DNA of 64,000 nt, taken from contig JAPLYZ010000007.1 in assembly GCA_026395295.1 (NCBI GenBank), positions 370 through 64,369 on the forward strand. The letters are read 5' to 3'. The notes beneath the pieces are model-generated. The model ran no database searches. It had not been told where the DNA came from and was given only the letters and a program-made list of their open reading frames with translations. Source of the DNA: Candidatus Staskawiczbacteria bacterium (GTDB taxonomy: Bacteria; Patescibacteriota; Minisyncoccia; Minisyncoccales; Staskawiczbacteraceae). Below, in pieces: positions 3,536 through 59,427 of this stretch; the stretch's first letter is position 1, and each line of letters starts with the position of its first letter. The position numbers were made by a program, and so were the translations under genes.

Positions 3536-4684
3536 TTAAGCCGTAAAATCGTTAACTATTTTTATTATACTTTTCTTAAAATTTTCAATAGAAAATTTAT
3601 GGCTAACCTCTGCCAGCCGTACGCGTAAATTTTCCTGCGCGTTAGTGTCGCATAAGACGGCTTCAATCTTCTTGACCGCATCATTGATGTTATCATAAAT
3701 TAGGGCTGAATCATTTACTATTTCTGTTTGACCGCCGCCGTTCGGAGCAAAAACAATGCAACCAGCGTTAACCATTTCGGCAACTGCAATGCCAAACGGC
3801 TCGTTGCTTCGGCCGGAAATGCCGTATTTATATCTTGCAATAAAATTCAGTTTATCTTGCCCGTACATAGGACCTTCGAAAAAACACCAATCTTTATTAT
3901 TCCCGCAAATCTTTTGAACTTTTTTTGCATAATCTGGGTCGTCAATTTTACCTATGATATGCAAATTAACACTCGGTCTTGTTTTCCTGACTTCTTTTAC
4001 TATTTCTATTATTTTTTCTACCTGTTTTTCAGGAGATATTCTGCCAAGACACACAAAATCTTCTTTTTTTTCCATCCAAGCAATGTATTGACAATCGCCC
4101 GCTATACAAGGATAAATAACCCCCGATTTAATTTTGTAAAATTCTTCTATAATTTGTTTCGTCCAACAAGAGTTCGATATTGTGATATTTTTCTTCCACC
4201 CATCTTCATAAGTCCCAGATAAATTCTCGGCAAGTTTTAGGTAACATTTTCTTAAGAATGATTTTTCATAAAGCCACTTCCGAGCTTTATTCGGCTCAGG
4301 ATCATACATTCTCCGCAATTCATCATTAAAAGATAAATCCGCAATAAATTGAATCCCTTTTTTGCCAAAATCCATAACATTGTATGTTGAAATCACAATG
4401 TCAAAATCAGAGGCTACTTTTTTGGCAAATCTTGCCAACCTATACGACCTCAACGCATCAAATCTATTCTTAAATAATCTTGGCGCTTTGATCTCTACAG
4501 TTTTGATTTCGCCCTCTTTAATATCAGTGCCATAATATTCATTAAGCTTCCCTAAATCGGCCTTGTCTCCACTAATCAAAGAGAGATCATAGTCTTTTTT
4601 CAACACCTCTGCAACCCAAAGAGCCACGGACTCAGAGCCGCCCAACTTTAATTGTGGATGAATAATAGCTATTTTTTTTCTCAT
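3536..4684 (-). CDS. GT4-family glycosyltransferase
   Basis: 382-aa ORF. C-terminal GRSNEPFGIAVAEMVNAGCIVFAPNGGGQTEIV is GT4-like. Only 3 nt separate it from the upstream gene. Confidence 0.7.
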   Translation of the reverse strand: MRKKIAIIHPQLKLGGSESVALWVAEVLKKDYDLSLISGDKADLGKLNEYYGTDIKEGEIKTVEIKAPRLFKNRFDALRSYRLARFAKKVASDFDIVISTYNVMDFGKKGIQFIADLSFNDELRRMYDPEPNKARKWLYEKSFLRKCYLKLAENLSGTYEDGWKKNITISNSCWTKQIIEEFYKIKSGVIYPCIAGDCQYIAWMEKKEDFVCLGRISPEKQVEKIIEIVKEVRKTRPSVNLHIIGKIDDPDYAKKVQKICGNNKDWCFFEGPMYGQDKLNFIARYKYGISGRSNEPFGIAVAEMVNAGCIVFAPNGGGQTEIVNDSALIYDNINDAVKKIEAVLCDTNAQENLRVRLAEVSHKFSIENFKKSIIKIVNDFTA

Positions 4685-31262: not shown

Positions 31263-32357
31263 TTACTTCTGATTAGCGAACTGTCCGCATGCGGCCTGTA
31301 TGTCGTCGCCAAATCTATACCTTTGAGAAAAATTTATTTTTGCTCTTTTTAGTATATTCTTAAAACTTTCTACTCTTTTTGTGCCGGACGGTTCAAAACT
31401 TCCCGTTTTGTTATACAAAATTAAGTTAACAAAATATAATTTCTTTACCCTGAGCGGAGTCGAAGGGTTGTCCATCAATTTTGCCAGTTCTCTGGCGCAC
31501 TCGTCCGAATCATTAACATTTTTGATTAACACATACTCAAACATAACTTTCCTCCCGGTTTTTTTAATATAGACATCAACTGCTTTTAGAACAGCTTCCA
31601 ACGGATATTTTTTGCTTATGGGCATAAGCTCTGAACGCAATTTATTATTTGGCGCATGCAAAGAAATTGCTAAGTTAAGTTGCAAACCTTCTTTAGAAAA
31701 TTTTTCAATGCCCCCAATAATTCCCGATGTCGAAACAGAAATTGACCTGGCGCCTATGTTAAAGCATGCTTTGTTGTTCAAAATTCTTATTGATTTTAAA
31801 ACATTGTCATAATTCAAAAATGGCTCGCCCATTCCCATATAAGTCACGTTAGTAATTTTATTATTTTTTAGTCCTGTGGTTCGGACTACGGGACTGTTTT
31901 GCAAATAACGCTCAAAAAATAAAACCTGCTCTAAAATTTCATTTGCAGACAAATTTCTTTTAAAACCCATTTTACCCGTGGCGCAAAACAAACACCCCAA
32001 CGGACAACCAACCTGCGAAGAAACGCAAACTGTATTTCTGGCATCTTCATGCCTCATCAAAACAGTTTCAACCATTAAGCCGTCCTTCAAGGTTATTCTG
32101 GCTTTTATGCTGTTTGAGCCAATTACGCCAACTTCTGCGACCGCATAATTTGGCGTATCCATATTTTTTTTGGAAAACAAAACGTCCGCTTCAATTTCAA
32201 GCGGGCATTCTTTGTTCAGTTTATCCCTTAAATCTTTTGAAAAAAAGGTTGCTTCCGACCAATCAGAAATAAAATTTTTCAAAACCGCCTCTTTTGCTTG
32301 CTTTAGGCGGTACTTCGGCTCATTCTCCAAAACTCTTTCTAAGTTGTTTATATCCAT
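31263..32357 (-). CDS. rlmN: 23S rRNA/tRNA adenine-C2 methyltransferase, radical SAM
   Basis: 364-aa ORF. CVSSQVGCPLGCLFCATG (CxxxCxxC), MGMGEP, and ISLHAPNNKLRSELMP. Confidence 0.85.
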   Translation of the reverse strand: MDINNLERVLENEPKYRLKQAKEAVLKNFISDWSEATFFSKDLRDKLNKECPLEIEADVLFSKKNMDTPNYAVAEVGVIGSNSIKARITLKDGLMVETVLMRHEDARNTVCVSSQVGCPLGCLFCATGKMGFKRNLSANEILEQVLFFERYLQNSPVVRTTGLKNNKITNVTYMGMGEPFLNYDNVLKSIRILNNKACFNIGARSISVSTSGIIGGIEKFSKEGLQLNLAISLHAPNNKLRSELMPISKKYPLEAVLKAVDVYIKKTGRKVMFEYVLIKNVNDSDECARELAKLMDNPSTPLRVKKLYFVNLILYNKTGSFEPSGTKRVESFKNILKRAKINFSQRYRFGDDIQAACGQFANQK

Positions 32358-44185: not shown

Positions 44186-44213
44186 AGTTTATCAGAAAAT
44201 AATTCTGTGTCAA
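44186..44213 (-). promoter_or_regulatory. Sigma-70-like promoter downstream of htrA
   Basis: Minus strand TTGACA (44213..44208), 16 nt spacer, TAAACT (44191..44186). An overlapping TATAAT lies at 44186..44181. Confidence 0.4.
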
Positions 44214-44250
44214 CCCCGTTAGAAGTCTTGAACAAGACTTCTAACGGGGT
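44213..44250. repeat. Perfect 17-bp-stem hairpin just after the htrA stop
   Basis: accccgttagaagtctt-gaac-aagacttctaacggggt. No U-tract follows on the minus strand, so it is more REP-like than a canonical terminator. Confidence 0.8.
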
Positions 44251-44256
44251 CAATGG

Positions 44257-45612
44257 CTAAGATGACCGTTCTCCCAAGGTTACAATTACATCCTGTTCTT
44301 TGCCGTCCCTTAAAATTCGCAAAGTAACTTTATCTCCGGCATTATGTTTTTGTATCATTTTTGACATTGGACTATCGGTGGTAATTTTCTCTCCGTCTAC
44401 CTTCAGAATAACATCTTTTTCTTTAATTCCAGCTTTTTCCGCCACAGAACCAGAAGTCACAGCTAATTCTCCTTTACTCCCCTTAAGGACTAGCGCTCCA
44501 TAGTCAACCGACAAATTATACTTTTCTTTAACCTGCTCATCAACCAAAATATATCTTACCCCCAAAAACGGATAAACAATTTTATTTGTTTTGGCAACTT
44601 GGTCAATATCTTTTTTCGCCATATTTATTGGAATAGCAAAACCAATAGCCTCTGCCCCTTGCGCCATAGCTGTATTAATACCAATAACTTCACCCCTCAA
44701 ATTCAATAAGGGTCCGCCAGAATTTCCAGAGTTAATTGCCGCATCTGTCTGTATTATGTCTTCCAATGTTTCCGAAAATGAACCCAACTGATCAGAAGCA
44801 GAAATTGTTCTGCCGAGACCCGAGATCACGCCCACCGAAACTGTGTTGCGGAATTGACCCAGCGCGTTTCCGATTGCAATAGCTGTCTGACCTATTTGTA
44901 TCCCCGAAGAATCTCCCAGAGTTACCGGCTGAAAAATTGTCCCGCCATTCGACGGGATCCCGCTGTGGCGGGAAATTTTTATAACTGCCAAATCCTGAAC
45001 CGGGTCAAGCGCCAAAACTTTTGCCGGATACTTTTGTCCATCGTTTGTAAAAACCGTATAATCTGCCTTGTTATCTGAAACAACGTGCTTATTCGTTAAA
45101 ACCAGCCCATCAGCTGAAACAATAAATCCAGACCCTGCTCCTATTTGCTGATACTTGGTTCCTTTTTGCACCTGTTGGGGAATTTGGATATCAAAGGGTC
45201 CAAAAAAATCTCCGAACGGATTATCACTGCTACCGTTATTGCCAAATGGATCTACGAGTTGCTGTTCGTAAACCGGAACGTTTTTAGAAATAACAATACT
45301 GACAACAGATGGCGAAACTTTTTTAGCGGCATCAATAATCGCTTGCTCGTAAGAGATGCCTGAAACGTAAGGTTTTGTGGCGGACTGATCGTTGTTCTTT
45401 TCTTTTTTTGGCGCTGTTGTTTCAAAATACTTTAGAAATGCTTGTGTTTCCGACGGAAAATAATGCAGAGCGGTAATACCAACATAAATACCAATAATGT
45501 ACCCTGCAACAACCAAGAGCAAAGCGCCTAAAAACACCTTATTTTTAATAATTTTTAAGCTTTTATTTTTAACTTCTGAAAAGTTATATTGTGGCAAATT
45601 GTACAAACTCAT
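44257..45612 (-). CDS. htrA: HtrA/DegP-family serine protease with PDZ domain
   Basis: 451-aa ORF. N-terminal TM helix; catalytic triad contexts TNKHVV, DLAVIKI and GNSGGPLLN; C-terminal PDZ (GIKEKDVILKVDGEKI). Confidence 0.9.
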   Translation of the reverse strand: MSLYNLPQYNFSEVKNKSLKIIKNKVFLGALLLVVAGYIIGIYVGITALHYFPSETQAFLKYFETTAPKKEKNNDQSATKPYVSGISYEQAIIDAAKKVSPSVVSIVISKNVPVYEQQLVDPFGNNGSSDNPFGDFFGPFDIQIPQQVQKGTKYQQIGAGSGFIVSADGLVLTNKHVVSDNKADYTVFTNDGQKYPAKVLALDPVQDLAVIKISRHSGIPSNGGTIFQPVTLGDSSGIQIGQTAIAIGNALGQFRNTVSVGVISGLGRTISASDQLGSFSETLEDIIQTDAAINSGNSGGPLLNLRGEVIGINTAMAQGAEAIGFAIPINMAKKDIDQVAKTNKIVYPFLGVRYILVDEQVKEKYNLSVDYGALVLKGSKGELAVTSGSVAEKAGIKEKDVILKVDGEKITTDSPMSKMIQKHNAGDKVTLRILRDGKEQDVIVTLGERSS

Positions 45613-51166: not shown

Positions 51167-52660
51167 CTAAATAAACTTTCGAGTATATTTTCTGTTCAAA
51201 TAACTTGTGACAGAAGCTATTGTTAAATAGGAAATGGCCAGCCATGCCCAATGAATGTTTTGAACTGTTTTCATCGCCCATGGTTGCGAGAAAAAATCTA
51301 TCACTTTTACAAAATATGTCAGCAAAAGCCAGCAAGGAACAGATAAAATCCAGCCCAACCAACTGGAAAAAACTCCGGCTATTGACGCTAAAAATCCAAG
51401 ACCCATAAGCCATGAAACAATAGGCAAAACCAAAAAATTTGTAACAGGCGCCACAAAAGATATATTCCCGAAGTTATAAACCATAACGGGTAAGGTGAAA
51501 ATTTGAGCCGCAAAAGTTGTTGAAACAATACTGACCAGGTTTTCCGCTTTATCTTTGGTAAAAACTTTTATAAATTTTTTAATAAGCGGGTCTAAATATA
51601 TCAACCCCAAAACAGCCAAAAAAGAAAGCTGAAACCCAACATCATAAATTAGAAGCAAAGGGTTTATCAAAAGCATTATTGAACAAGCTAAAGTTATCAA
51701 CCTAGAACTCATGGTTTGTCTGCCAATTTTTTGGGATAAAAGATAGACTCCGCCCATAATGCCGGCCCTTACTCCAGAAGACGGCAAACCGGTCAGCACA
51801 ATATATGTACAGATAAAAACCATTGCAATATAAAAAGCCTGCCCTCTCCAGAAACCCATGGCCAGCAACAGAAACATAATAATTGAAGCCAAAATCACAA
51901 CATGCGTGCCGGAAACAGCTATGACATGACGCAGTCCGGTGATATTAAGCTTTACCTTCAAATCATTTGTCATGGCTCCATTATCTCCCAATATTGTTCC
52001 TTCTAAAATTGAACTTTGCGGAGGTAAAAAATTATGCTTGATGCTTTCCCTTATCTTTCCTTTGAAAAACAAAATCCAAGAATAAATTTTTTGAAATATA
52101 CTCGGCTTTATTTTGCCTACTTCCCCGCCCGAGGCGGGTCCGCCTAGGGCGGAAATCTTAGGGAACCCCATTATAGAGTAAATATGGTCTTTTAATAAAT
52201 AATTTTTATAATTAAAAGTATCGGTAACTGATGGAGTTTCCAGTTTACCTGTAATTTTTACTGTGTCTAAATACTTATATTCAGGATATCGGTTGGTGGT
52301 TACCAGAATTACACTATCGCCAACTTCTACTTTCAACTTCTGGAAAGTGTCTCTGACATCCGGCTCGCCTGCAACTACGCCGGTCATAAAAACTTGCCCC
52401 CTCCCATTAAACTTACTTAATTTATCATTAGCGATATTGAATTCTGAAATCTGAACCCTCACAATGCCGACGACTATCAATAATAAACATAACCCTGCGA
52501 CAGAGCTTACCCTCTTTACTAAAAAAGATAAAAAAACAAGAACGACCCCCAAAAATAAAATCCCCCAAATAAAATTTTGAGGAATTTTTATTACAGATTC
52601 CAAAAATATTCCCGCAACAAATGACAGACAAAAATAAAATAATATCTTAGACGCGCTCAT
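51167..52660 (-). CDS. comEC: ComEC/Rec2-family DNA-uptake channel protein (no metallo-beta-lactamase domain)
   Basis: 497-aa polytopic ORF. ITGLRHVIAVSGTHVVIL competence-domain motif; N-terminal OB/DUF4131-like region. Confidence 0.8.
   Translation of the reverse strand: MSASKILFYFCLSFVAGIFLESVIKIPQNFIWGILFLGVVLVFLSFLVKRVSSVAGLCLLLIVVGIVRVQISEFNIANDKLSKFNGRGQVFMTGVVAGEPDVRDTFQKLKVEVGDSVILVTTNRYPEYKYLDTVKITGKLETPSVTDTFNYKNYLLKDHIYSIMGFPKISALGGPASGGEVGKIKPSIFQKIYSWILFFKGKIRESIKHNFLPPQSSILEGTILGDNGAMTNDLKVKLNITGLRHVIAVSGTHVVILASIIMFLLLAMGFWRGQAFYIAMVFICTYIVLTGLPSSGVRAGIMGGVYLLSQKIGRQTMSSRLITLACSIMLLINPLLLIYDVGFQLSFLAVLGLIYLDPLIKKFIKVFTKDKAENLVSIVSTTFAAQIFTLPVMVYNFGNISFVAPVTNFLVLPIVSWLMGLGFLASIAGVFSSWLGWILSVPCWLLLTYFVKVIDFFSQPWAMKTVQNIHWAWLAISYLTIASVTSYLNRKYTRKFI
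52124..52153. repeat. Two tandem GC-rich mini-hairpins inside comEC
   Basis: cccgcc-cga-ggcggg (52124..52138) and tccgcc-tag-ggcgga (52139..52153), translated in frame as SALGGPASGG. Confidence 0.7.
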
Positions 52661-52675
52661 CCTTATTGTACAGTA

Positions 52676-52711
52676 GTCTTACAAATATACAAGCTTATAT
52701 ATTTGTAAGAC
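52676..52711. promoter_or_regulatory. 36-bp palindrome A-left (gtcttacaaatata-c-aagctt-a-tatatttgtaagac)
   Basis: 14-bp perfect arms around an AAGCTT core. It ends 1 nt before the stop codon of 52713..53240 and 15 nt upstream of the comEC ATG. Confidence 0.8.
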
Positions 52712-52712
52712 G

Positions 52713-53240
52713 TTAGATTTCTTCAATTATAAATACTTTAACGTAATTATCTAATGAATGCATCTGCAACAATTGCTCTGTTTTCCCTGAAACATCATAA
52801 GGTGAAACCCAAACGCTTTGTTGAAGTAATTTATAGCCAAGATTAATCAAAATGCTCTTTAATAGATTCCTTGCCTTTCTACGCTTTTCAGGAATATCAA
52901 AAATTAACATTATCCACTTGCCATCTTTTCTCTTCTTCTTTCCTTCGATAGCAAAACTTGCTTTCAGCGCCTTACTTATCCCATCTTTTGTAAGAATTAT
53001 AGCTTTTTTATTTTCTAAATTTTTTATCTTTATGTAGCCTTTTCTCTTAAGATAATAAATAAGGTTTCTGAACTCCCTTTTGTTTCTGTCGTTTCTGTAT
53101 TTTTTATAAATTGGGTTTTGCGGACCTGGCAAGAAGTTCCTCATAGTAGGCGCTCTGAACGCAAAATCAGCAATATTGCCCGCACTGCTCAAAAAATTAT
53201 AGACATCCCAAAGAAACTGATCTGTGATTGATATTCTCAT
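52713..53240 (-). CDS. wHTH + Cas2-like (PaaX-type) DNA-binding protein, paralog 1
   Basis: 175-aa ORF. wHTH-like FRNLIYYLKRKGYIKIKNLENKKAIILTKDGISKA, then a Cas2/PaaX-middle-domain-like core KWIMLIFDIPEKRRKARNLLKSILINLGYKLLQQSVWVSPYD. Confidence 0.6.
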   Translation of the reverse strand: MRISITDQFLWDVYNFLSSAGNIADFAFRAPTMRNFLPGPQNPIYKKYRNDRNKREFRNLIYYLKRKGYIKIKNLENKKAIILTKDGISKALKASFAIEGKKKRKDGKWIMLIFDIPEKRRKARNLLKSILINLGYKLLQQSVWVSPYDVSGKTEQLLQMHSLDNYVKVFIIEEI

Positions 53241-53290
53241 TTTAGTATCATCTTAATATCGTTCGTCTCCTACATTTTATATTTTATCAC

Positions 53291-53328
53291 AGTCTTACAA
53301 ATTTAGAAGCTTGTATATTTGTAAGACT
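53291..53328. promoter_or_regulatory. 38-bp palindrome A-right (agtcttacaaat-ttag-aagctt-gtat-atttgtaagact)
   Basis: 12-bp perfect outer arms with the same half-site and AAGCTT core as 52676..52711. It lies 50 nt upstream of the ATG at 53240, with TAAAAT boxes between. Confidence 0.8.
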
Positions 53329-53365
53329 ATTTATCATGGGAAAAGTAGATAAAAACAGACAAGAA

Positions 53366-53394
53366 TTGACAAAAAAATTAATTAGGATTAACAT
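53366..53394 (+). promoter_or_regulatory. Sigma-70-like promoter for 53437..53727
   Basis: TTGACA (53366..53371), 17 nt spacer, TAACAT (53389..53394). Confidence 0.5.
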
Positions 53395-53436
53395 AAAAAT
53401 AAGTTAACAATTCGAACTTTGACAAAAGGATTCCCG

Positions 53437-53727
53437 ATGAATAAATTGAATGCAATTTTTGATAAGATGGCAAGGGCAATCGCGCCATTTTCATGGCCCT
53501 TGGCAATTATCTGCAGCTTGCTAACGTTCGCTTACCAATCGACTAAGCTGCATAATAGCCCAACATTCACTGCCGTCTTTGCCGGCGTTTTTCTCTCCTG
53601 CTCAATCTTTTTATGGGCCGAGTTCTGGATAAGGCGCAATCGGCTTTATCCCCTTGCCGGGCTTTGCTCTTCAATCTGGTTGCTTATGAGTACGATGCTT
53701 TTCATCAAGCTCATCGAGCTGTTATAA
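53437..53727 (+). CDS. Small membrane protein (hypothetical)
   Basis: The ORF-track start at 53419 is TTG; I prefer ATG at 53437 (MNKLNAIFDK) with aagga 8 nt upstream. About three hydrophobic helices. Looks GC-richer than its flanks by eye (no count made). Confidence 0.5.
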   Translation: MNKLNAIFDKMARAIAPFSWPLAIICSLLTFAYQSTKLHNSPTFTAVFAGVFLSCSIFLWAEFWIRRNRLYPLAGLCSSIWLLMSTMLFIKLIELL

Positions 53728-54462: not shown

Positions 54463-54475
54463 ACTTTAATATAAC

Positions 54476-54506
54476 AAAAAAGCCCCTTACTTAAAAGGGC
54501 TTTTTT
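54476..54506 (-). terminator. Terminator-like hairpin between nrdD and nrdG
   Basis: agcccctt-actt-aaaagggct flanked by an A-run (54476..54480) and a T-run (54501..54506). On the minus strand the hairpin is followed by TTTTT. Confidence 0.55.
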
Positions 54507-54509
54507 ATT

Positions 54510-56678
54510 TTATGCAGTTACTTTTTGTTCCACGGGCGAACTTTCTTTCACTGCTTCTGTCGGGCAGATAAACTCCTTTCGTTCTTTGTATTCTTCCTGC
54601 TTGCCTTTATGCCATTGCTGAACAGGCCTGATATAACCCACTACCCTTGAATAAACCTCGCAAGGCTGTTTTATGGTGCACTGAGGACACTCGAAATGTT
54701 CGCCGGAGATATAACCGTGTGTCGGACAAATTGAGAATGTTGGAGTCAAAGTAATATATGGCAAGCTATAATTTTCACATATTTTTCTCACTAAATTCTT
54801 TGCCATATTAGGATCAGAAATTTTCTCTCCTAAAAATATGTGCAAAACAGTTCCACCGGTATATTTTGTTTGAAGGTCGTTTTGCAGTTCAAGAGCTTGA
54901 AAAATATCGTCAGTAAATCCAACAGGCAACTGGCTGGAATTAGTGTAATAAGGGACTTCCTTGGTGCCGGCTGTAACAATATCAGGATATTTTTCTTTAT
55001 CGGTTTTCGCCTGCCTATAACTTGTCCCTTCTCCCGGGGTTGCTTCCAAATTATATAAATTCCCCGTTTCTTCCTGGAATTTAACCATTTTGTCTCTCAT
55101 AAAGTCCAAAATTTCAATCGCAAACTTTTTGCCCTTTGGGGTTGTTATGTCTTCTTCTAAAAAGTTAATCAAAGCTTCGTTCATGCCCATTATTCCAATA
55201 GTCGAAAAATGGTTCCCAAAATAAGTGTTTCTCATCTTTTTCATTTCCTCTAAATAGTGCCTCGAATAAGGGTAAAGTCCTTTTTCCATGAAGTCGTCTA
55301 AAGCTTTTCTTTTAATTTCCAAACTTTCTTTTGCCAGCTCCATCAAATGGCTAAGCTTATCAAAAAATTCTGATTTTGTTTTTGATGTGTATCCGATTCT
55401 TGGCAGGTTTATAGTAACTACTCCAATTGATCCTGTTTTTGGCGAAGAGCCGAATAATCCTCCTCCTCTTTTGTAAAGTTCTCTGTTGTCTAAACGCAAT
55501 CTGCAGCACATTGACCTGGCATCATCCGGACTCATGTCGGACTGGATAAAGTTGGAAAAATAATTTATGCCGTATTTTGCCGTTGCCTCCCACATTGCCG
55601 CCAAATTTGGATTGTCCCACTCAAAATCTTTAGTAATTGAGACTGTCGGAATTGGAAAAGTAAACGGCCTGCCGGATGCATCGCCCTCCATCAAACCTTC
55701 GTAGAACGCTCTGATAAACATATCCATTTCCGGCTGAAAATCTCCATAAGTTTCGTCTTGAACTTCGCCTCCTATAATAATCGGCTGTTTCGCCAAAAAT
55801 GCCGGCGGTTTGATGTCTAAGGAAACATTCAAAAATGGTGTTTGAAAACCAACGCGAGTTGGCACCATGCAACTGTACAAAAATTCCTGCATCACCTGCT
55901 TAACTTGTTTGTAATCTAATTTGTCATATCTTATAAACGGAGCCAAAAGCGTATCAAAGTTGGAAATGGCATTTGCTCCGGCTGTTTCTCCTTGCAAAGT
56001 GAACAAAACATTAACCAATTGTCCCATGGCAGTTCTCAAATGCTTTGGAGGTTTGCATTCTATTTTTCCGGGAACTCCCCCAAATCCTTTTATTAAAAAA
56101 TCATACAAATCCCATCCTGCGCAATATGGCGCCAAAAGTTCTAAATTATGAATATGAAAATCTTCGTTTGCCGCCGCATCTCTTATTTCTTTGGGATAAA
56201 TTTTATTCAGCCAATATTTCTTGGAAATGTAAGAGCCCACATACTGGTTTAATCCCTGCAAGGAAAAAGTCATATTGGCATTCTCTTTTACCTGCCAATC
56301 AATTTCTTTAAGATAACTGTCTATTTTTTCCGATGACTCGTCGCTGACTTTTGCCGCTTCGCGGATTGCCCTTCTTTGCTCTCTGTACAAAACATAGGCC
56401 TTGGCTGTTTCAACTAAACCCTCCAGCATAAGCGCCTCCTCAACAATGTCTTGTATCTGCTCTATGCTCGGAGTTTCGTCTTTTTTAAATCTGCGGTTCA
56501 GTAAGCTGACAACTTTATCTGAAACTCTTTTTGAAACTACACCATCTCCCTGGTTTGTCGCCACAACTGCTTTGTGAACTGCCTCTGCAATTTTTTCCTG
56601 CTCAAAATTAACAACCCTTCCGTCTCTTTTACGAACTTTTTCCACGTGATTTTTTACCTCCTCTTTTTCTGATGTCAT
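54510..56678 (-). CDS. nrdD: Class III (anaerobic) ribonucleoside-triphosphate reductase with N-terminal ATP-cone
   Basis: 722-aa ORF. ATP-cone (VRKRDGRVVNFEQEKIAEAV), C-terminal Zn-ribbon cysteines (CPTHGYISGEHFECPQC) and glycyl-radical motif SRVVGYIRPV. Confidence 0.9.
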   Translation of the reverse strand: MTSEKEEVKNHVEKVRKRDGRVVNFEQEKIAEAVHKAVVATNQGDGVVSKRVSDKVVSLLNRRFKKDETPSIEQIQDIVEEALMLEGLVETAKAYVLYREQRRAIREAAKVSDESSEKIDSYLKEIDWQVKENANMTFSLQGLNQYVGSYISKKYWLNKIYPKEIRDAAANEDFHIHNLELLAPYCAGWDLYDFLIKGFGGVPGKIECKPPKHLRTAMGQLVNVLFTLQGETAGANAISNFDTLLAPFIRYDKLDYKQVKQVMQEFLYSCMVPTRVGFQTPFLNVSLDIKPPAFLAKQPIIIGGEVQDETYGDFQPEMDMFIRAFYEGLMEGDASGRPFTFPIPTVSITKDFEWDNPNLAAMWEATAKYGINYFSNFIQSDMSPDDARSMCCRLRLDNRELYKRGGGLFGSSPKTGSIGVVTINLPRIGYTSKTKSEFFDKLSHLMELAKESLEIKRKALDDFMEKGLYPYSRHYLEEMKKMRNTYFGNHFSTIGIMGMNEALINFLEEDITTPKGKKFAIEILDFMRDKMVKFQEETGNLYNLEATPGEGTSYRQAKTDKEKYPDIVTAGTKEVPYYTNSSQLPVGFTDDIFQALELQNDLQTKYTGGTVLHIFLGEKISDPNMAKNLVRKICENYSLPYITLTPTFSICPTHGYISGEHFECPQCTIKQPCEVYSRVVGYIRPVQQWHKGKQEEYKERKEFICPTEAVKESSPVEQKVTA

Positions 56679-56750
56679 ATTTTTCTTGGGACAAAAAAAT
56701 GGCCTAAGCCTTAATTAACTTTTAATATTATCTCACTATTACTATACTAC

Positions 56751-56778
56751 ATTTTACTCCAAAGAAAAATCGTGTCAA
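56751..56778 (-). promoter_or_regulatory. Sigma-70-like promoter of nrdD
   Basis: Minus strand TTGACA (56778..56773), 16 nt spacer, TAAAAT (56756..56751). Leader is about 65 nt. Confidence 0.5.
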
Positions 56779-56940
56779 ATTTTATTTCCGAGAGAAGCCC
56801 TGTGGATAAACTAATTAAACACTCAAAAATATGTTTTCGCAGGAAACTAAGCAATAAAAACCACCACTTACTAAAAACTCCAGTAAAAATTCCGGTGATA
56901 TGCAACGAATAATAAACAACGTATAATATATACAATGTAT

Positions 56941-56980
56941 AGTGGTAGCGTTTTTGTCGTTCGCCAAAAAACTTACCACT
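56941..56980. promoter_or_regulatory. 40-bp degenerate palindrome B-left (agtggtagcgtttttgtcgttcgccaaaaaacttaccact)
   Basis: Identical to 57571..57610 at 36 of 40 positions. It starts 11 nt after the stop of 56992..57570 and lies about 160 nt upstream of the nrdD -35 box. Confidence 0.8.
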
Positions 56981-56991
56981 ACCACCTTAAA

Positions 56992-57570
56992 CTAATTTAA
57001 CTTAAATCTAAATTTCAAACGCTCTTCACCGTCGATAAAATCCGCTAAAACGAACTTCACATATTTCTCCAATTTTAATAATTTAACCAGCGCCGCTACT
57101 TCTCTTCGGCAATCATATGGATAAACGAATAAACTTTTCTGAAACTCATAAAATCCTGCAGACTTAAATCTATACCTTAGCGCATTCCTCCCCTTTCTAC
57201 ACTCCTCGGGAATATCAAAAGCAAATATTCTCCACTTCTCATCCCATTTTTCTTTTCTATTCTCAAGCCTTCTAAAAGTAATATTTAACGCTCTTAACAT
57301 CCCCTTTTCAGTTAAAGAAACAAGCACCGAGCCATTGTAGTTTTCCTTTTTCTTTATTAATTTTTGTTTGTTTAGGTCTCTAATTCCATCTTTCATTTTC
57401 CCTGGACTAATTTCATTTTTCCAATGGTCAAAATGTTCTGAAATCCAAAACTTCTTTTTCGCCCTATAGCTAAAACCGTAATCTACAGAATCGTACAAGT
57501 GCAATAAAATTTCCTCAATTATAGAATTTTTCATTAATTTAATTATACCGCAAATAATATCAAAAGTCAT
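56992..57570 (-). CDS. wHTH + Cas2-like (PaaX-type) DNA-binding protein, paralog 2
   Basis: The ORF-track start (57609) lies inside the palindrome. Plausible starts are ATG 57570 (MTFDIICG...) or ATG 57534 (MKNSIIEEIL...), the latter preceded by TATAAT at 57547..57542. Cas2-like core KWRIFAFDIPEECRKGRNALRYRFKSAGFYEFQKSLFVYPYD aligns with paralog 1. Confidence 0.6.
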   Translation of the reverse strand: MTFDIICGIIKLMKNSIIEEILLHLYDSVDYGFSYRAKKKFWISEHFDHWKNEISPGKMKDGIRDLNKQKLIKKKENYNGSVLVSLTEKGMLRALNITFRRLENRKEKWDEKWRIFAFDIPEECRKGRNALRYRFKSAGFYEFQKSLFVYPYDCRREVAALVKLLKLEKYVKFVLADFIDGEERLKFRFKLN

Positions 57571-57610
57571 AGTGGTAGCGTTTTTGTCGTTCGACAAAAA
57601 CGCTACCACT
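57571..57610. promoter_or_regulatory. 40-bp palindrome B-right (agtggtagcgtttttgtcg-tt-cgacaaaaacgctaccact)
   Basis: Perfect 19-bp arms with a 2-nt centre. It directly abuts the first in-frame ATG of 56992..57570. Confidence 0.85.
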
Positions 57611-57633
57611 ACTAATACAAAGTATCAATACAA

Positions 57634-57667
57634 CAAAAAACCGCCGAAAAAAATTTAGCGGTTTTTT
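57634..57667 (-). terminator. Bidirectional-looking rho-independent terminator after 57674..57886
   Basis: aaccgc...gcggtt hairpin flanked by an A-run and a T-run. Confidence 0.65.
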
Positions 57668-57673
57668 GAATCT

Positions 57674-57983: not shown

Positions 57984-58412
57984 TTATATTTCCTCTATTC
58001 TTTTCTTAAGGACAGAATTGTTTTTCTTCCTTAGTTCTTTTATCTCTTCGTCATGTTCTAACCTCATCTTTCTCTCCTTCTCTTCCAGCTGATGTGCCAA
58101 TTCTATAAACTCGGGCGTGCCCCTGCTTGACAACGCATTTATGTACGCCTCCCTGTTATTTTGAAATATTTCATCTCTAAGACTATTAAGTTTTTCCAGG
58201 CGAGCATAAAGGCGTTCTTTTATTTTATCCGCCTCAACATCAAAATTAAATTCTGTTTCTTCGACCTTAGGCTCTGTTGCTCCTTCAACAGAATCCACAC
58301 TTGTTTCTGCCGGAATTGCACTTTCCGGAACAGGTGCTTCTGCTCCTTGAGCCGGCACCCCCTCCTCTGGAGGCAATTCTTCTCCCTCTTTTCTTAATAC
58401 TTCTCCGTTCAT
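57984..58412 (-). CDS. Acidic/Pro-rich N-terminus + coiled-coil protein (hypothetical), immediately downstream of ftsZ
   Basis: 142-aa ORF. N-terminal half EEGVPAQGAEAPVPESAIPAETSVDSVEGATEPKVEE looks disordered; the C-terminal half is heptad-like (KIKERLYARLEKLNSLRDEI...). Confidence 0.45.
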   Translation of the reverse strand: MNGEVLRKEGEELPPEEGVPAQGAEAPVPESAIPAETSVDSVEGATEPKVEETEFNFDVEADKIKERLYARLEKLNSLRDEIFQNNREAYINALSSRGTPEFIELAHQLEEKERKMRLEHDEEIKELRKKNNSVLKKRIEEI

Positions 58413-58423
58413 AATTTTACCGT

Positions 58424-58455
58424 ACCCTAAATTTAGAACGTTCTATTTTTAGGGT
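58424..58455. promoter_or_regulatory. 32-bp near-palindrome between ftsZ and the 142-aa ORF
   Basis: accctaaatttagaac / gttctatttttagggt, 14 of 16 arm positions complementary. It ends 11 nt upstream of the ATG at 58412. Confidence 0.5.
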
Positions 58456-58503
58456 ATGCTTAGTTTTTTTGTATTTTCGACCTTTTTTATTTATTTATAT
58501 TTA

Positions 58504-59427
58504 TTATACCAACTTTGTGGCGATTACGGTAATTTTTATTTCACCTTTTTTGAGTTCCTTGTCTTTTACTGCGCCAAAAATTATTTGAGCCTTAGGGTCA
58601 ACATTTTTGGTAATAACTTTGGCGGCTTCTTGAATCTCATTCAAAGTTATATCATTTCCCGAAACAGAAAACAAAACTCCTTTTGCCCCCTTGATTGAAA
58701 AATCCAAAAGTGGAGAACTAATTGCTATTTCTGCTGCCCGAACCGCGCGATTTTCTCCCAATGCTTTGCCCACTCCAAAAAGCGCTTGGCCGGAATTCTT
58801 CATAACAGATAAAACCGATGCAAAATCAATGTTTATAATTCCCGGCACTAAAATTAAATCAGTTATTGATTGAGCAGCTTCCCGTAAAATATCGTCACAG
58901 ATTAAAAAGGCGCTTGATACAGTAGTTTTTTCATCTATAACTTTCAAAAGCTTGTCATTGGAAATTACCAGCAAAGAGTCAACCTTGCCTGTTAAATTTT
59001 TCAAAGCTGTTTTGGCAACTTCTTTTCTCTCTTGACCTTCAAAAGAAAAAGGAGTTGTAACAACCGCAATAGTTAAAATTCCAAGTCCTTTTGCAAGCTC
59101 GGCAACAACAGGCGAAGCTCCGCTTCCGGTTCCTCCCCCAAGTCCGCAAGTTACAAAAACCATATCTGCCCCCTTCAAGTTTTCCAAAATTTCCTGTTTA
59201 GATTCTTCCGCTGACTTTCTGCCTAACTCCGCATCCATTCCAGTGCCAAGCCCCTTTGTGGTGTCTTTTCCAATTAGGATTTTTTTATGGCTTTTTGAAA
59301 AATACAAAGCCTGCGCGTCTGTGTTCACCGCCAGCAATTCAACTTCCTGCATCTGAAATTTCGCCATTCTTGAAACAGTGTTAGACCCGGATCCTCCCAC
59401 TCCAATAACTTTTATTTTCGGATTCAT
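58504..59427 (-). CDS. ftsZ: Cell-division GTPase FtsZ (core only, 307 aa)
   Basis: VIGVGGSGSNTV, GGGTGSGASPVVAE (tubulin signature), NTDAQAL. The ORF ends at ...KITVIATKLV, i.e. at the end of the globular core. Confidence 0.9.
   Translation of the reverse strand: MNPKIKVIGVGGSGSNTVSRMAKFQMQEVELLAVNTDAQALYFSKSHKKILIGKDTTKGLGTGMDAELGRKSAEESKQEILENLKGADMVFVTCGLGGGTGSGASPVVAELAKGLGILTIAVVTTPFSFEGQERKEVAKTALKNLTGKVDSLLVISNDKLLKVIDEKTTVSSAFLICDDILREAAQSITDLILVPGIINIDFASVLSVMKNSGQALFGVGKALGENRAVRAAEIAISSPLLDFSIKGAKGVLFSVSGNDITLNEIQEAAKVITKNVDPKAQIIFGAVKDKELKKGEIKITVIATKLV

Follow-up and report, generated by a model that had tools for sequence, protein, structure and literature searches.

PaaX, the repressor of phenylacetate catabolism in Escherichia coli W (PDB 8a39; PF07848, PF20803 and PF08223), carries a winged helix followed by a Cas2-like domain; its gene lies with the paa catabolic genes, and its inducer is phenylacetyl-CoA. 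Its reported E. coli operator, TGATTC-N27-GAATCA, spans 39 bp, and the protein represses its own promoter (Px) by steric hindrance (PMC9493321). The same ferredoxin-like fold is that of Cas2 in the Cas1-Cas2 integrase of CRISPR adaptation, where a Cas2 dimer sits on the middle of a DNA duplex; E. coli Cas2 contacts the prespacer duplex through N10, R14 and R16, just after strand β1 (PMC6395717). Here, we describe a gene for a short PaaX-type protein, together with the two long palindromes that flank it, in a 64-kb stretch of DNA from Staskawiczbacteria (Patescibacteria), which we refer to as the window. The gene and its palindromes are labelled Unit 1, a second such set in the window is labelled Unit 2, and L-numbers (L001 and so on) denote homologue loci that we fetched. 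We propose, with a probability of about 0.7, that both palindromes serve as cognate operators for the 175-amino acid (aa) protein whose gene they enclose, and that the protein reads them in two parts.

Two further kinds of regulator are relevant to this layout. Multi-operator repressors such as lambda CI (OL/OR), LacI (O1/O2/O3) and DeoR flank a gene or loop around it, and CcpA, CodY, PurR and LacI at O2 repress as DNA-bound roadblocks. The Unit 1 locus resembles each of these systems in part.

A short PaaX-type protein between two palindromes

The sequence-only reading of the window had called the enclosed gene product a Cas2-like regulator. This label is justified by a match to PF20803, PaaX_M, the 'central Cas2-like domain' (E-value of 1.6 × 10−20, 73 bits against a cut-off of 24). 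The Pfam Cas2 family matched the protein below threshold only, the Pfam model of the PaaX N-terminus gave no score, and no PaaX_C domain was matched in the protein, which ends at residue 175. Among the full-length profiles, TIGR02277 (PaaX), which has a cut-off of 264.55, gave 31.3 bits over profile positions 33–149 of 279, while TIGR01573 (cas2) reached 26.7 bits against a cut-off of 24.5 and covered only positions 2–48 of 96. An AlphaFold2 (AF2) model with a predicted local distance difference test score (pLDDT) of 81 contains a winged helix (helices at residues 5–20 and 43–48, the recognition helix at 54–67 and the wing strands at 70–83), a linker helix (85–99) and a Cas2-like β-α-β-β-α-β domain (109–172). 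The best PDB match in Foldseek was E. coli PaaX 8a39 (E-value of 3 × 10−5, 185 aligned columns), followed by Cas2 structures, several of which matched about 70 residues of the C-terminal half with a probability of at least 0.99. The winged helices of MarR, TubR and F-93 were matched as well, and a sequence search gave a weak match to 8a39 at the same residues as the structural one. Since the protein combines a winged helix with a Cas2-like fold, lacks PaaX_C and has PaaX as its best structural match, it is a short PaaX-type protein, here called mini-PaaX, and not Cas2.

An NCBI protein from Candidatus Staskawiczbacteria that is identical to it (100%) is named 'CRISPR-associated endonuclease Cas2', because its half-profile match to TIGR01573 lies just above the cut-off. 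We rejected this identity. A direct-repeat scan of the 64-kb window found no CRISPR array, there is no cas1 among the neighbours of the gene (nrdG, a small membrane open reading frame (ORF) and comEC in the window), and a 175-aa winged-helix fusion is unlike the stand-alone Cas2 proteins of about 90–100 aa. A profile search for the family returned 5,595 representatives of 50%-identity clusters at an E-value of at most 10−3 and 2,911 at 10−10, with the best matches mostly 170–230 aa long. PF20803 was present in 120/120 homologues among the matches listed.

Beyond the shared order of domains, mini-PaaX resembles PaaX in its predicted operators, which are dyad-symmetric and 36–38 bp long, as against about 39 bp at the PaaX gene's own promoter, and one of which abuts a candidate promoter. 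It differs in being half the length and without PaaX_C, in having no paa genes nearby, in a gene bracketed by two sites, and in its many paralogues per genome, in Patescibacteria.

The palindromes themselves are both centred on AAGCTT. The left one, downstream (3') of the minus-strand gene, reads gtcttacaaatata-c-aagctt-a-tatatttgtaagac, with perfect 14-bp arms and a single non-complementary C/A pair. It lies 1 nucleotide (nt) past the regulator stop codon, and the ATG of comEC (52660) is 15 nt beyond its end, so that it nearly fills the 52-nt gap between the two genes (52661–52712). The right one, upstream (5') of the gene, reads agtcttacaaat-ttag-aagctt-gtat-atttgtaagact or, written by half-sites, AGTCTTACAAAT-TTAG-AAGCTT-GTAT-ATTTGTAAGACT. 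Its outer arms are perfect over 12 bp, and the regulator ATG (53240) is 50 nt away. An inverted-repeat tool gave the pair 18- and 19-nt arms with no spacer, that is, lengths of 36–38 bp. Reverse-complemented, the right copy matches an a followed by the left copy exactly over its first 22 nt. The coordinates, arms, centres, 22-nt identity and nearly filled spacer before comEC had been described in the sequence-only reading and were borne out when we re-read the sequence.

These repeats stand out from their surroundings. Four palindromes in the window scored at least 14 in a palindrome scan, and none of 20 shuffled sequences contained any. The half-site AGTCTTACAAAT, allowing one mismatch at most, occurs four times in 64 kb, each time as an arm of one of the two Unit 1 sites; looser matches in the window were at chance level (12 observed, 10.9 expected). 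Both copies are part of a 48-nt direct repeat (D13; 52664–52711 and 53280–53327, 83% identity), whose extra 12 nt beyond the palindrome are gene-proximal and include a −10-like hexamer. We also scored the window with a dyad position weight matrix (PWM) of the family that was trained only on loci outside it. The right copy was match 2 (24.5) and the left copy match 3 (20.8) in the 64 kb, where the 99.99th percentile of the background was 10.9.

Recurrence of the bracket and covariation of protein and DNA

To see how the layout recurs, we used loci fetched for homologues of the Unit 1 protein, 45 from genomes and 80 from metagenomes, which yielded 85 unique proteins with enough flanking sequence. 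Matched 5' and 3' palindromes were present in 39/85 loci, a 3' copy only in 17/85, a 5' copy only in 7/85 and differing copies on the two sides in 2/85. Some of the loci scored as one-sided or as having none hold degenerate or more distant copies (L046, L048, L020). Per kb, there were 3.79 palindromes in the 130 nt next to the gene ends and 0.098 in the rest of the same loci, a difference of about 39-fold. The sequence is specific to the locus: the two copies of one locus were identical at a mean of 32.1 of 36 positions and copies of different loci at 16.0 of 36. Paralogues of a single genome likewise have differing palindromes, as seen for Units 1 and 2 of the window and for L008, L012, L013 and L036.

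Genes for DegT, FemAB, DprA, TopA, LigA, HolA, MutM and RodA neighbour the homologues, and the syntenic positions nrdG-regulator-comEC, dprA-regulator-topA, mutM-regulator-holA and ligA-regulator-X-rodA are kept across genomes. Many neighbours belong to DNA uptake, replication or repair (comEC, dprA, topA, ligA, holA, mutM, nrdDG) and others are cell-wall genes (DegT, FemAB, Mur ligase, RodA); we claim no excess over the gene content of small genomes. Third copies of the palindrome occur in neighbouring intergenic regions, in L021 (1881–1920) ahead of the gene that lies upstream of the regulator and in L016 (about 4492–4526) behind the gene that follows it. Some regulators therefore have sites beyond the two of the bracket.

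A gene with the same site on both flanks, several diverged copies per genome and a bracket that is independent of its neighbours might be taken for an excisable or transposable cassette between its own att-like sites, with paralogues arising by cassette spread, all the more as arms around a 6-bp centre recall lox- or dif-type sites. However, neither the protein nor its neighbours contain a recombinase, transposase or HUH domain, and the conserved syntenic positions do not fit a mobile element. Paralogues that are 50–60% identical speak against recent spread, fully symmetric centres would leave the sites without orientation, and the third copies lie in adjacent intergenic regions. We consider mobility of this kind very improbable.

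We next asked which residues and bases change together. For this, we aligned 65 non-redundant proteins, each with the half-site consensus of its palindrome, and compared mutual information with permutations. Residues 59, 63, 66 and 67 of the recognition helix covary with DNA positions 12–18 from the dyad, while residues 116, 118, 120, 121, 125, 128, 141 and 146 of the Cas2-like domain covary with positions 1–6. Among pairs with z of at least 6, the helix and wing account for one at the centre and five in the outer part, and the Cas2-like domain for 17 and none, respectively (Fisher p = 1.8 × 10−4). These relations can be written as simple rules. At residue 59, K goes with C15 (23/27), Q with G15 (12/17) and N with T15 (10/13), corresponding to the outer triplets TAC, TAG and TCT. 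At residue 141, K or R goes with A1 (14/15) and Q with G1 (41/47); further rules for the centre link K128 to C4/A3, H120 to A3 and D125 to C5. Residues 59 and 141 are near-independent (z = 2), there is no correlation between the DNA block at the centre and the outer one, and residue and base switches co-occur inside single synteny groups, so shared ancestry alone is unlikely to be the cause. A comparison within loci lends independent support: 5' and 3' copies agree at positions 1–4 and 13–17, the ones that set specificity, and differ mostly at 5–12. Unit 1 fits the rules, with N59 alongside GTCTTAC and with Q141 and K128 alongside CAAG/CTTG in one half of each site.

The recurrence of the bracket and the covariation argue that the palindromes are the protein's own operators. 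The sequence-only reading had thought it most likely that the product of the enclosed gene binds both copies, and the family-wide layout, the locus-specific sequences and the covariation all support that view. From these data and the fold, we infer binding by a dimer that would cover about 36–38 bp. Its two recognition helices would read the outer arms at bases about 12–18 from the dyad (here GTCTTAC), and the Cas2-like dimer core would lie on the dyad and read the central 12 bp or so (here TACAAG/CTTGTA). Residues 116–121 directly follow strand β1, as does the contact element of Cas2, and the fold topology would bring the β1 loop, the start of helix α1 and the β2/β3 turn (residue 141) together at one end of the domain. 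Mini-PaaX also departs from both relatives. Unlike the PaaX operator, its palindrome is continuous through the centre, where the bases change together with residues of the Cas2-like domain. Cas2 itself touches nothing but the DNA backbone and has no sequence specificity; in mini-PaaX the domain is fused to a winged helix.

Several points weigh against the operator reading or its details. No palindrome was found at the threshold used in 20/85 loci. The covariation rests on 65 sequences analysed by a method that is not tree-corrected, and L015 and L097 are exceptions to it. Each of the two window sites has one inner half that is off the ATAC-AAG consensus. The AF2 model is a monomer, and the dimer geometry and DNA contacts are putative. 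In a consensus promoter scan of positions 52500–53500, matches were not above chance, and the palindrome of the window lies upstream of its −10 element, a position compatible with activation too. Finally, differences between 5' and 3' copies are often symmetric at positions 7–10 (45 symmetric against 76 asymmetric arm-pairs), which base readout does not explain. They could reflect DNA-shape constraints or palindrome-correcting template switching, a known mutational process.

Differences that are symmetric in both arms might also be expected of RNA hairpins that terminate, stabilise or mark processing of the regulator mRNA and are perhaps cut or bound by the Cas2-like domain in the manner of a VapD/Cas2 RNase. 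Such palindromes, long and near-perfect, would fold, and the 3' copy adjoins the stop codon. Some Cas2/VapD homologues are RNases (PDB 3exc and 3ui3 are among the fold matches), and the conserved Asp115 is kept. Yet pairing runs through the dyad: the pair nearest to it is complementary in 53/58 cases, and 49/58 are complementary over the nearest two or three pairs. This does not fit a hairpin, as a loop could not pair. Mismatches show no excess of the G.U type (16 against 11 of the opposite type, of 67), and the sense strand has no T-tract, although canonical terminators with a GC stem and T-tract occur in the window at 57636–57668 and 54469–54513. The 5' copies of many loci overlap the −10 of a seemingly leaderless gene and would not be transcribed from that promoter. 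Covariation of recognition-helix residues with the outer arms is as expected for readout of double-stranded DNA, and no Rfam family was matched in the window. A hairpin role therefore appears very improbable. Because of the central pairing, the lack of G.U bias and of a T-tract, and the absence of an Rfam match, we treat the palindromes as putative double-stranded DNA operators. An intrinsic terminator was likewise rejected, given the AT-rich stem, the pairing through the centre and the lack of a minus-strand T-tract; in a terminator scan, the left copy was picked up on the plus (antisense) strand but not on the minus strand.

The upstream copy, the downstream copy and comEC

The right palindrome is followed on the minus strand by the candidate promoter of the regulator. 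An extended −10 element, TGaTAAAAT (53289..53281), begins 1 nt past the palindrome, and a second TAAAAT follows. The sequence-only reading was wrong in placing this copy between the gene and its −10 boxes: the minus-strand order is palindrome (53328..53291), TAAAAT (53286..53281), TAAAAT (53279..53274) and ATG (53240). Similar elements are found elsewhere, with ATAAAATATAA after the upstream palindrome of orthologue L046 and TATAAT after that of L001. About 13/25 of the 5' copies have a −10-like hexamer on the gene side at +16 from the dyad, as do few 3' copies. A −10-like hexamer ending 5–9 nt before the ATG, with a peak at 6–7 nt, precedes 32/95 regulators, compared with 7/57 window genes and 11/80 downstream genes. 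This spacing suggests that many regulators may be leaderless, with the operator lying over the core promoter. We used the −10-to-ATG spacing because Shine-Dalgarno sequences are rare throughout the window. With a Shine-Dalgarno-like motif in only 7/57 window genes, and A-runs before many starts, the absence of that motif is unusable as evidence of leaderless genes.

That the upstream copy abuts an extended −10 suggests autoregulation. The 5' site would lie over about −16 to −53 of the regulator promoter and most likely keep RNA polymerase off it, in the way that PaaX acts at Px. For a protein that instead activates or prevents termination at its palindromes, the argument is the position of the 5' palindrome in the window and in L036 and L021, upstream of the (extended) −10 and about at or beyond −35, as for class I/II activators. 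Nevertheless, in about half of the 5' copies the outer arm itself forms the −10, 6–9 nt from the ATG, where a bound dimer would occlude RNA polymerase. PaaX, the only characterised relative, is a repressor, and an activator would have no obvious use for a site past the stop codon. We therefore regard activation or anti-termination as quite unlikely and repression as the probable mode of action; any ligand of mini-PaaX would be a further inferred element of this scheme.

Upstream of the right palindrome lies a divergent ORF (53437–53727, plus strand) of about 96 aa, membrane-like and without a family match, in a window where 52/57 genes are on one strand. A −10-like TATCAT faces this ORF at the mirror offset from the palindrome. 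Orthologue L001 lacks the ORF and has nrdG immediately before the operator. The promoter scan also returned TAGATA-16-TATAAT in the 3' end of the regulator gene, which is unconserved in orthologues and was not used. In L048, a tandem repeat of aggaataaggagagata in about four copies (2300–2380) lies between the upstream palindrome and the regulator ATG.

On the downstream side, a −10-like TACAAT lies 5 nt past the left palindrome, at the same offset as TAAAAT past the right one, and 4 nt before the ATG of comEC. This hexamer is not conserved in orthologues L001, L046 and L048, and it could be a second promoter copy that is specific to the window. comEC is the downstream neighbour in these three loci also, the 3' palindrome is kept there, and both sites are kept in all four comEC-linked loci. 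The sequence-only reading had concluded that expression of comEC has to pass through a site that is most likely bound by the upstream gene product. As a matter of geometry this stands, since any minus-strand transcript from upstream crosses the left copy, there is no intrinsic terminator between the regulator and comEC, and orthologues keep the site. We found no support, however, for taking the left copy as an operator of comEC as such.

In its full form, the latter explanation has the left copy as primarily a comEC promoter-operator, in which the palindrome, 5 nt and the −10 hexamer drive a leaderless or near-leaderless comEC mRNA from TACAAT, and the regulator represses it directly and has comEC as its specific target. 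It accounts for the hexamer at the same offset in both copies of the 48-nt repeat, for the short distance to the comEC ATG and for retention of the 3' palindrome in the comEC-linked orthologues. The greater number of 3' than 5' copies (58 against 48 of 85) and the third copies before one neighbouring gene (L021) and after another (L016) are in line with it too. We nonetheless think it unlikely. TACAAT is just 4 nt from the ATG, and in the three orthologues that do not conserve it the spacer is 47–85 nt. The −10 element at +16 is usually missing from 3' copies. Across the family, the start of the 3' copy tracks the regulator stop codon (mostly −8 to +25 nt from it) and not the start of the next gene, from which its distance is broad (14 to more than 600 nt). 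The 3' copy persists in 4/5 loci where the next gene is convergent, plus L128, and the downstream neighbours are highly diverse (FemAB 17, TopA 6, HolA 5, ComEC 4, RodA 3). A position linked to the stop codon, persistence next to convergent genes and varied neighbours point to a feature of the regulator cassette. The 3' copy thus probably belongs to the regulator and is not a dedicated comEC operator, with comEC one of many neighbours.

As the second half of a conserved 'self-bracket', the 3' site would most likely form a roadblock, a loop with the 5' site, or both; across loci, the two sites are 571–799 bp apart from centre to centre. With comEC co-directional, 15 nt past the site and without an intervening terminator, a bound 3' site would also gate transcription from the regulator, or from genes upstream of it, into comEC. 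Like the multi-operator repressors, mini-PaaX would combine a promoter site with a second cognate site several hundred bp away, in cooperative repression or as a roadblock. It differs from them in that the second site is fixed by the stop codon and the arrangement is repeated over paralogues with private sites, and looping or tetramerisation is putative here. As with the roadblock regulators, the site would be crossed by elongating RNA polymerase. The mini-PaaX site is, however, intergenic and the same as the promoter site.

Table 1. Features of Unit 1, Unit 2 and comEC in the window.
Feature	Positions	Strand	Basis or remark
comEC (DUF4131 and Competence domains)	51167–52660	−	PF03772, E = 2 × 10−51; PF13567
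−10-like TACAAT	52665–52670	−	Sequence; in direct repeat D13
Left (downstream, 3') palindrome, Unit 1	52676–52711	none	Putative operator
Mini-PaaX regulator, 175 aa	52713–53240	−	PF20803, AF2 model and Foldseek
Candidate −10 region of regulator	53274–53289	−	Read from sequence
Right (upstream, 5') palindrome, Unit 1	53291–53328	none	Putative operator
Unit 2 downstream putative operator	56941–56982	none	Degenerate copy; direct repeat D14
Unit 2 paralogue, mini-PaaX, 180 aa	56992–57534	−	PF20803, E = 2 × 10−21; phmmer and BLASTP
Unit 2 upstream putative operator	57570–57611	none	Perfect 20+2+20: TAGTGGTAGCGTTTTTGTCG tt CGACAAAAACGCTACCACTA

Further palindromes and what the family may mean

The second mini-PaaX of the window is 28% identical to the first, and its gene, with a start codon inferred from alignment, lies upstream of nrdD. 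The Unit 2 upstream palindrome, 35 nt before the paralogue ATG, is unrelated in sequence to those of Unit 1. Its downstream copy is 91% identical to it (D14) and lies 9 nt past the stop codon and 262 nt before the nrdD ATG. Of six loci fetched for the Unit 2 subfamily, five have both copies and one the downstream copy only. Unit 2, which is outside the covariation set, combines K at residue 141 with a half-site whose last bases are CGA. Between its downstream putative operator and the nrdD ATG (56678) is an untranslated stretch (262 nt; 56683–56940) with no obvious gene and no Rfam match.

Other palindromes in the window have no mini-PaaX beside them. The top match to the family PWM in the window (25.3) is an orphan palindrome of the family type at 58422–58457, GTACCCTAAATTTAGAAC-GTTCTATTTTTAGGGTAT, between ftsZ (58504–59427, minus strand) and an unannotated 142-aa gene (57984–58412, minus strand). 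As there is no adjacent mini-PaaX, its regulator must be encoded elsewhere and is predicted to be of the K59 'TAC' type. Match 4 (32123–32158, TTACGCCAACTTCTGCGA-CCGCATAATTTGGCGTAT) scores 16.0, is symmetric at 14/18 positions and lies inside an ORF (31263–32357, minus strand), either as an internal site or perhaps by chance. A perfect 18+2+18 palindrome at 44213–44250, ACCCCGTTAGAAGTCTTG aa CAAGACTTCTAACGGGGT, directly past the stop codon of an unannotated 451-aa ORF (44257–45612, minus strand), is not of the mini-PaaX operator type. Outside the window, three different long near-perfect palindromes (34, 48 and 46 nt) lie within 260 bp of L013 (501–759), beside an unrelated gene.

PaaX repressors and palindromic operators are already known kinds. 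New here are the short architecture, the systematic bracket, the many paralogues with their own sites and the apparent base readout by a Cas2-like domain. In the papers covered, a literature search found no description of the mini-PaaX family or its sites, and PMC13186573 has nothing on operators. More tentatively, and at what we judge to be somewhat less than even odds, the self-bracketed mini-PaaX proteins may form a large family in Patescibacteria, with thousands of 50%-identity clusters, in which the Cas2-fold dimer serves as a base-specific reader of the dyad alongside two winged helices. The recognition code would then be modular, with two parts. Residue 59 would set the outer triplet and residues 141, 128, 120 and 125 the central hexamer, and each paralogue would insulate or gate one junction between housekeeping genes, such as nrdG/comEC, dprA/topA, mutM/holA, ligA/rodA or degT/femAB. 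As part of the same tentative proposal, the bracket would serve as a transcriptional valve worked by the protein, in genomes with nearly all genes in one direction and few other regulators.

How Candidate Phyla Radiation bacteria, which are not growable alone, control transcription is almost wholly unexplored. If the palindromes are the operators of an abundant regulator family whose residue-to-base code can be read, regulator–site pairs would be predictable directly from metagenomes, and orphan sites such as the one after ftsZ could be assigned. The mini-PaaX identity would also put right hundreds of 'Cas2' annotations in lineages that are poor in CRISPR. A Cas2-fold domain that reads sequence would be a new use of the fold and would bear on the relationship between Cas2 and PaaX. 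At this locus, the candidate switch is tied to comEC, the DNA-uptake channel, which is relevant to organisms that are thought to rely on scavenged DNA and nucleotides.

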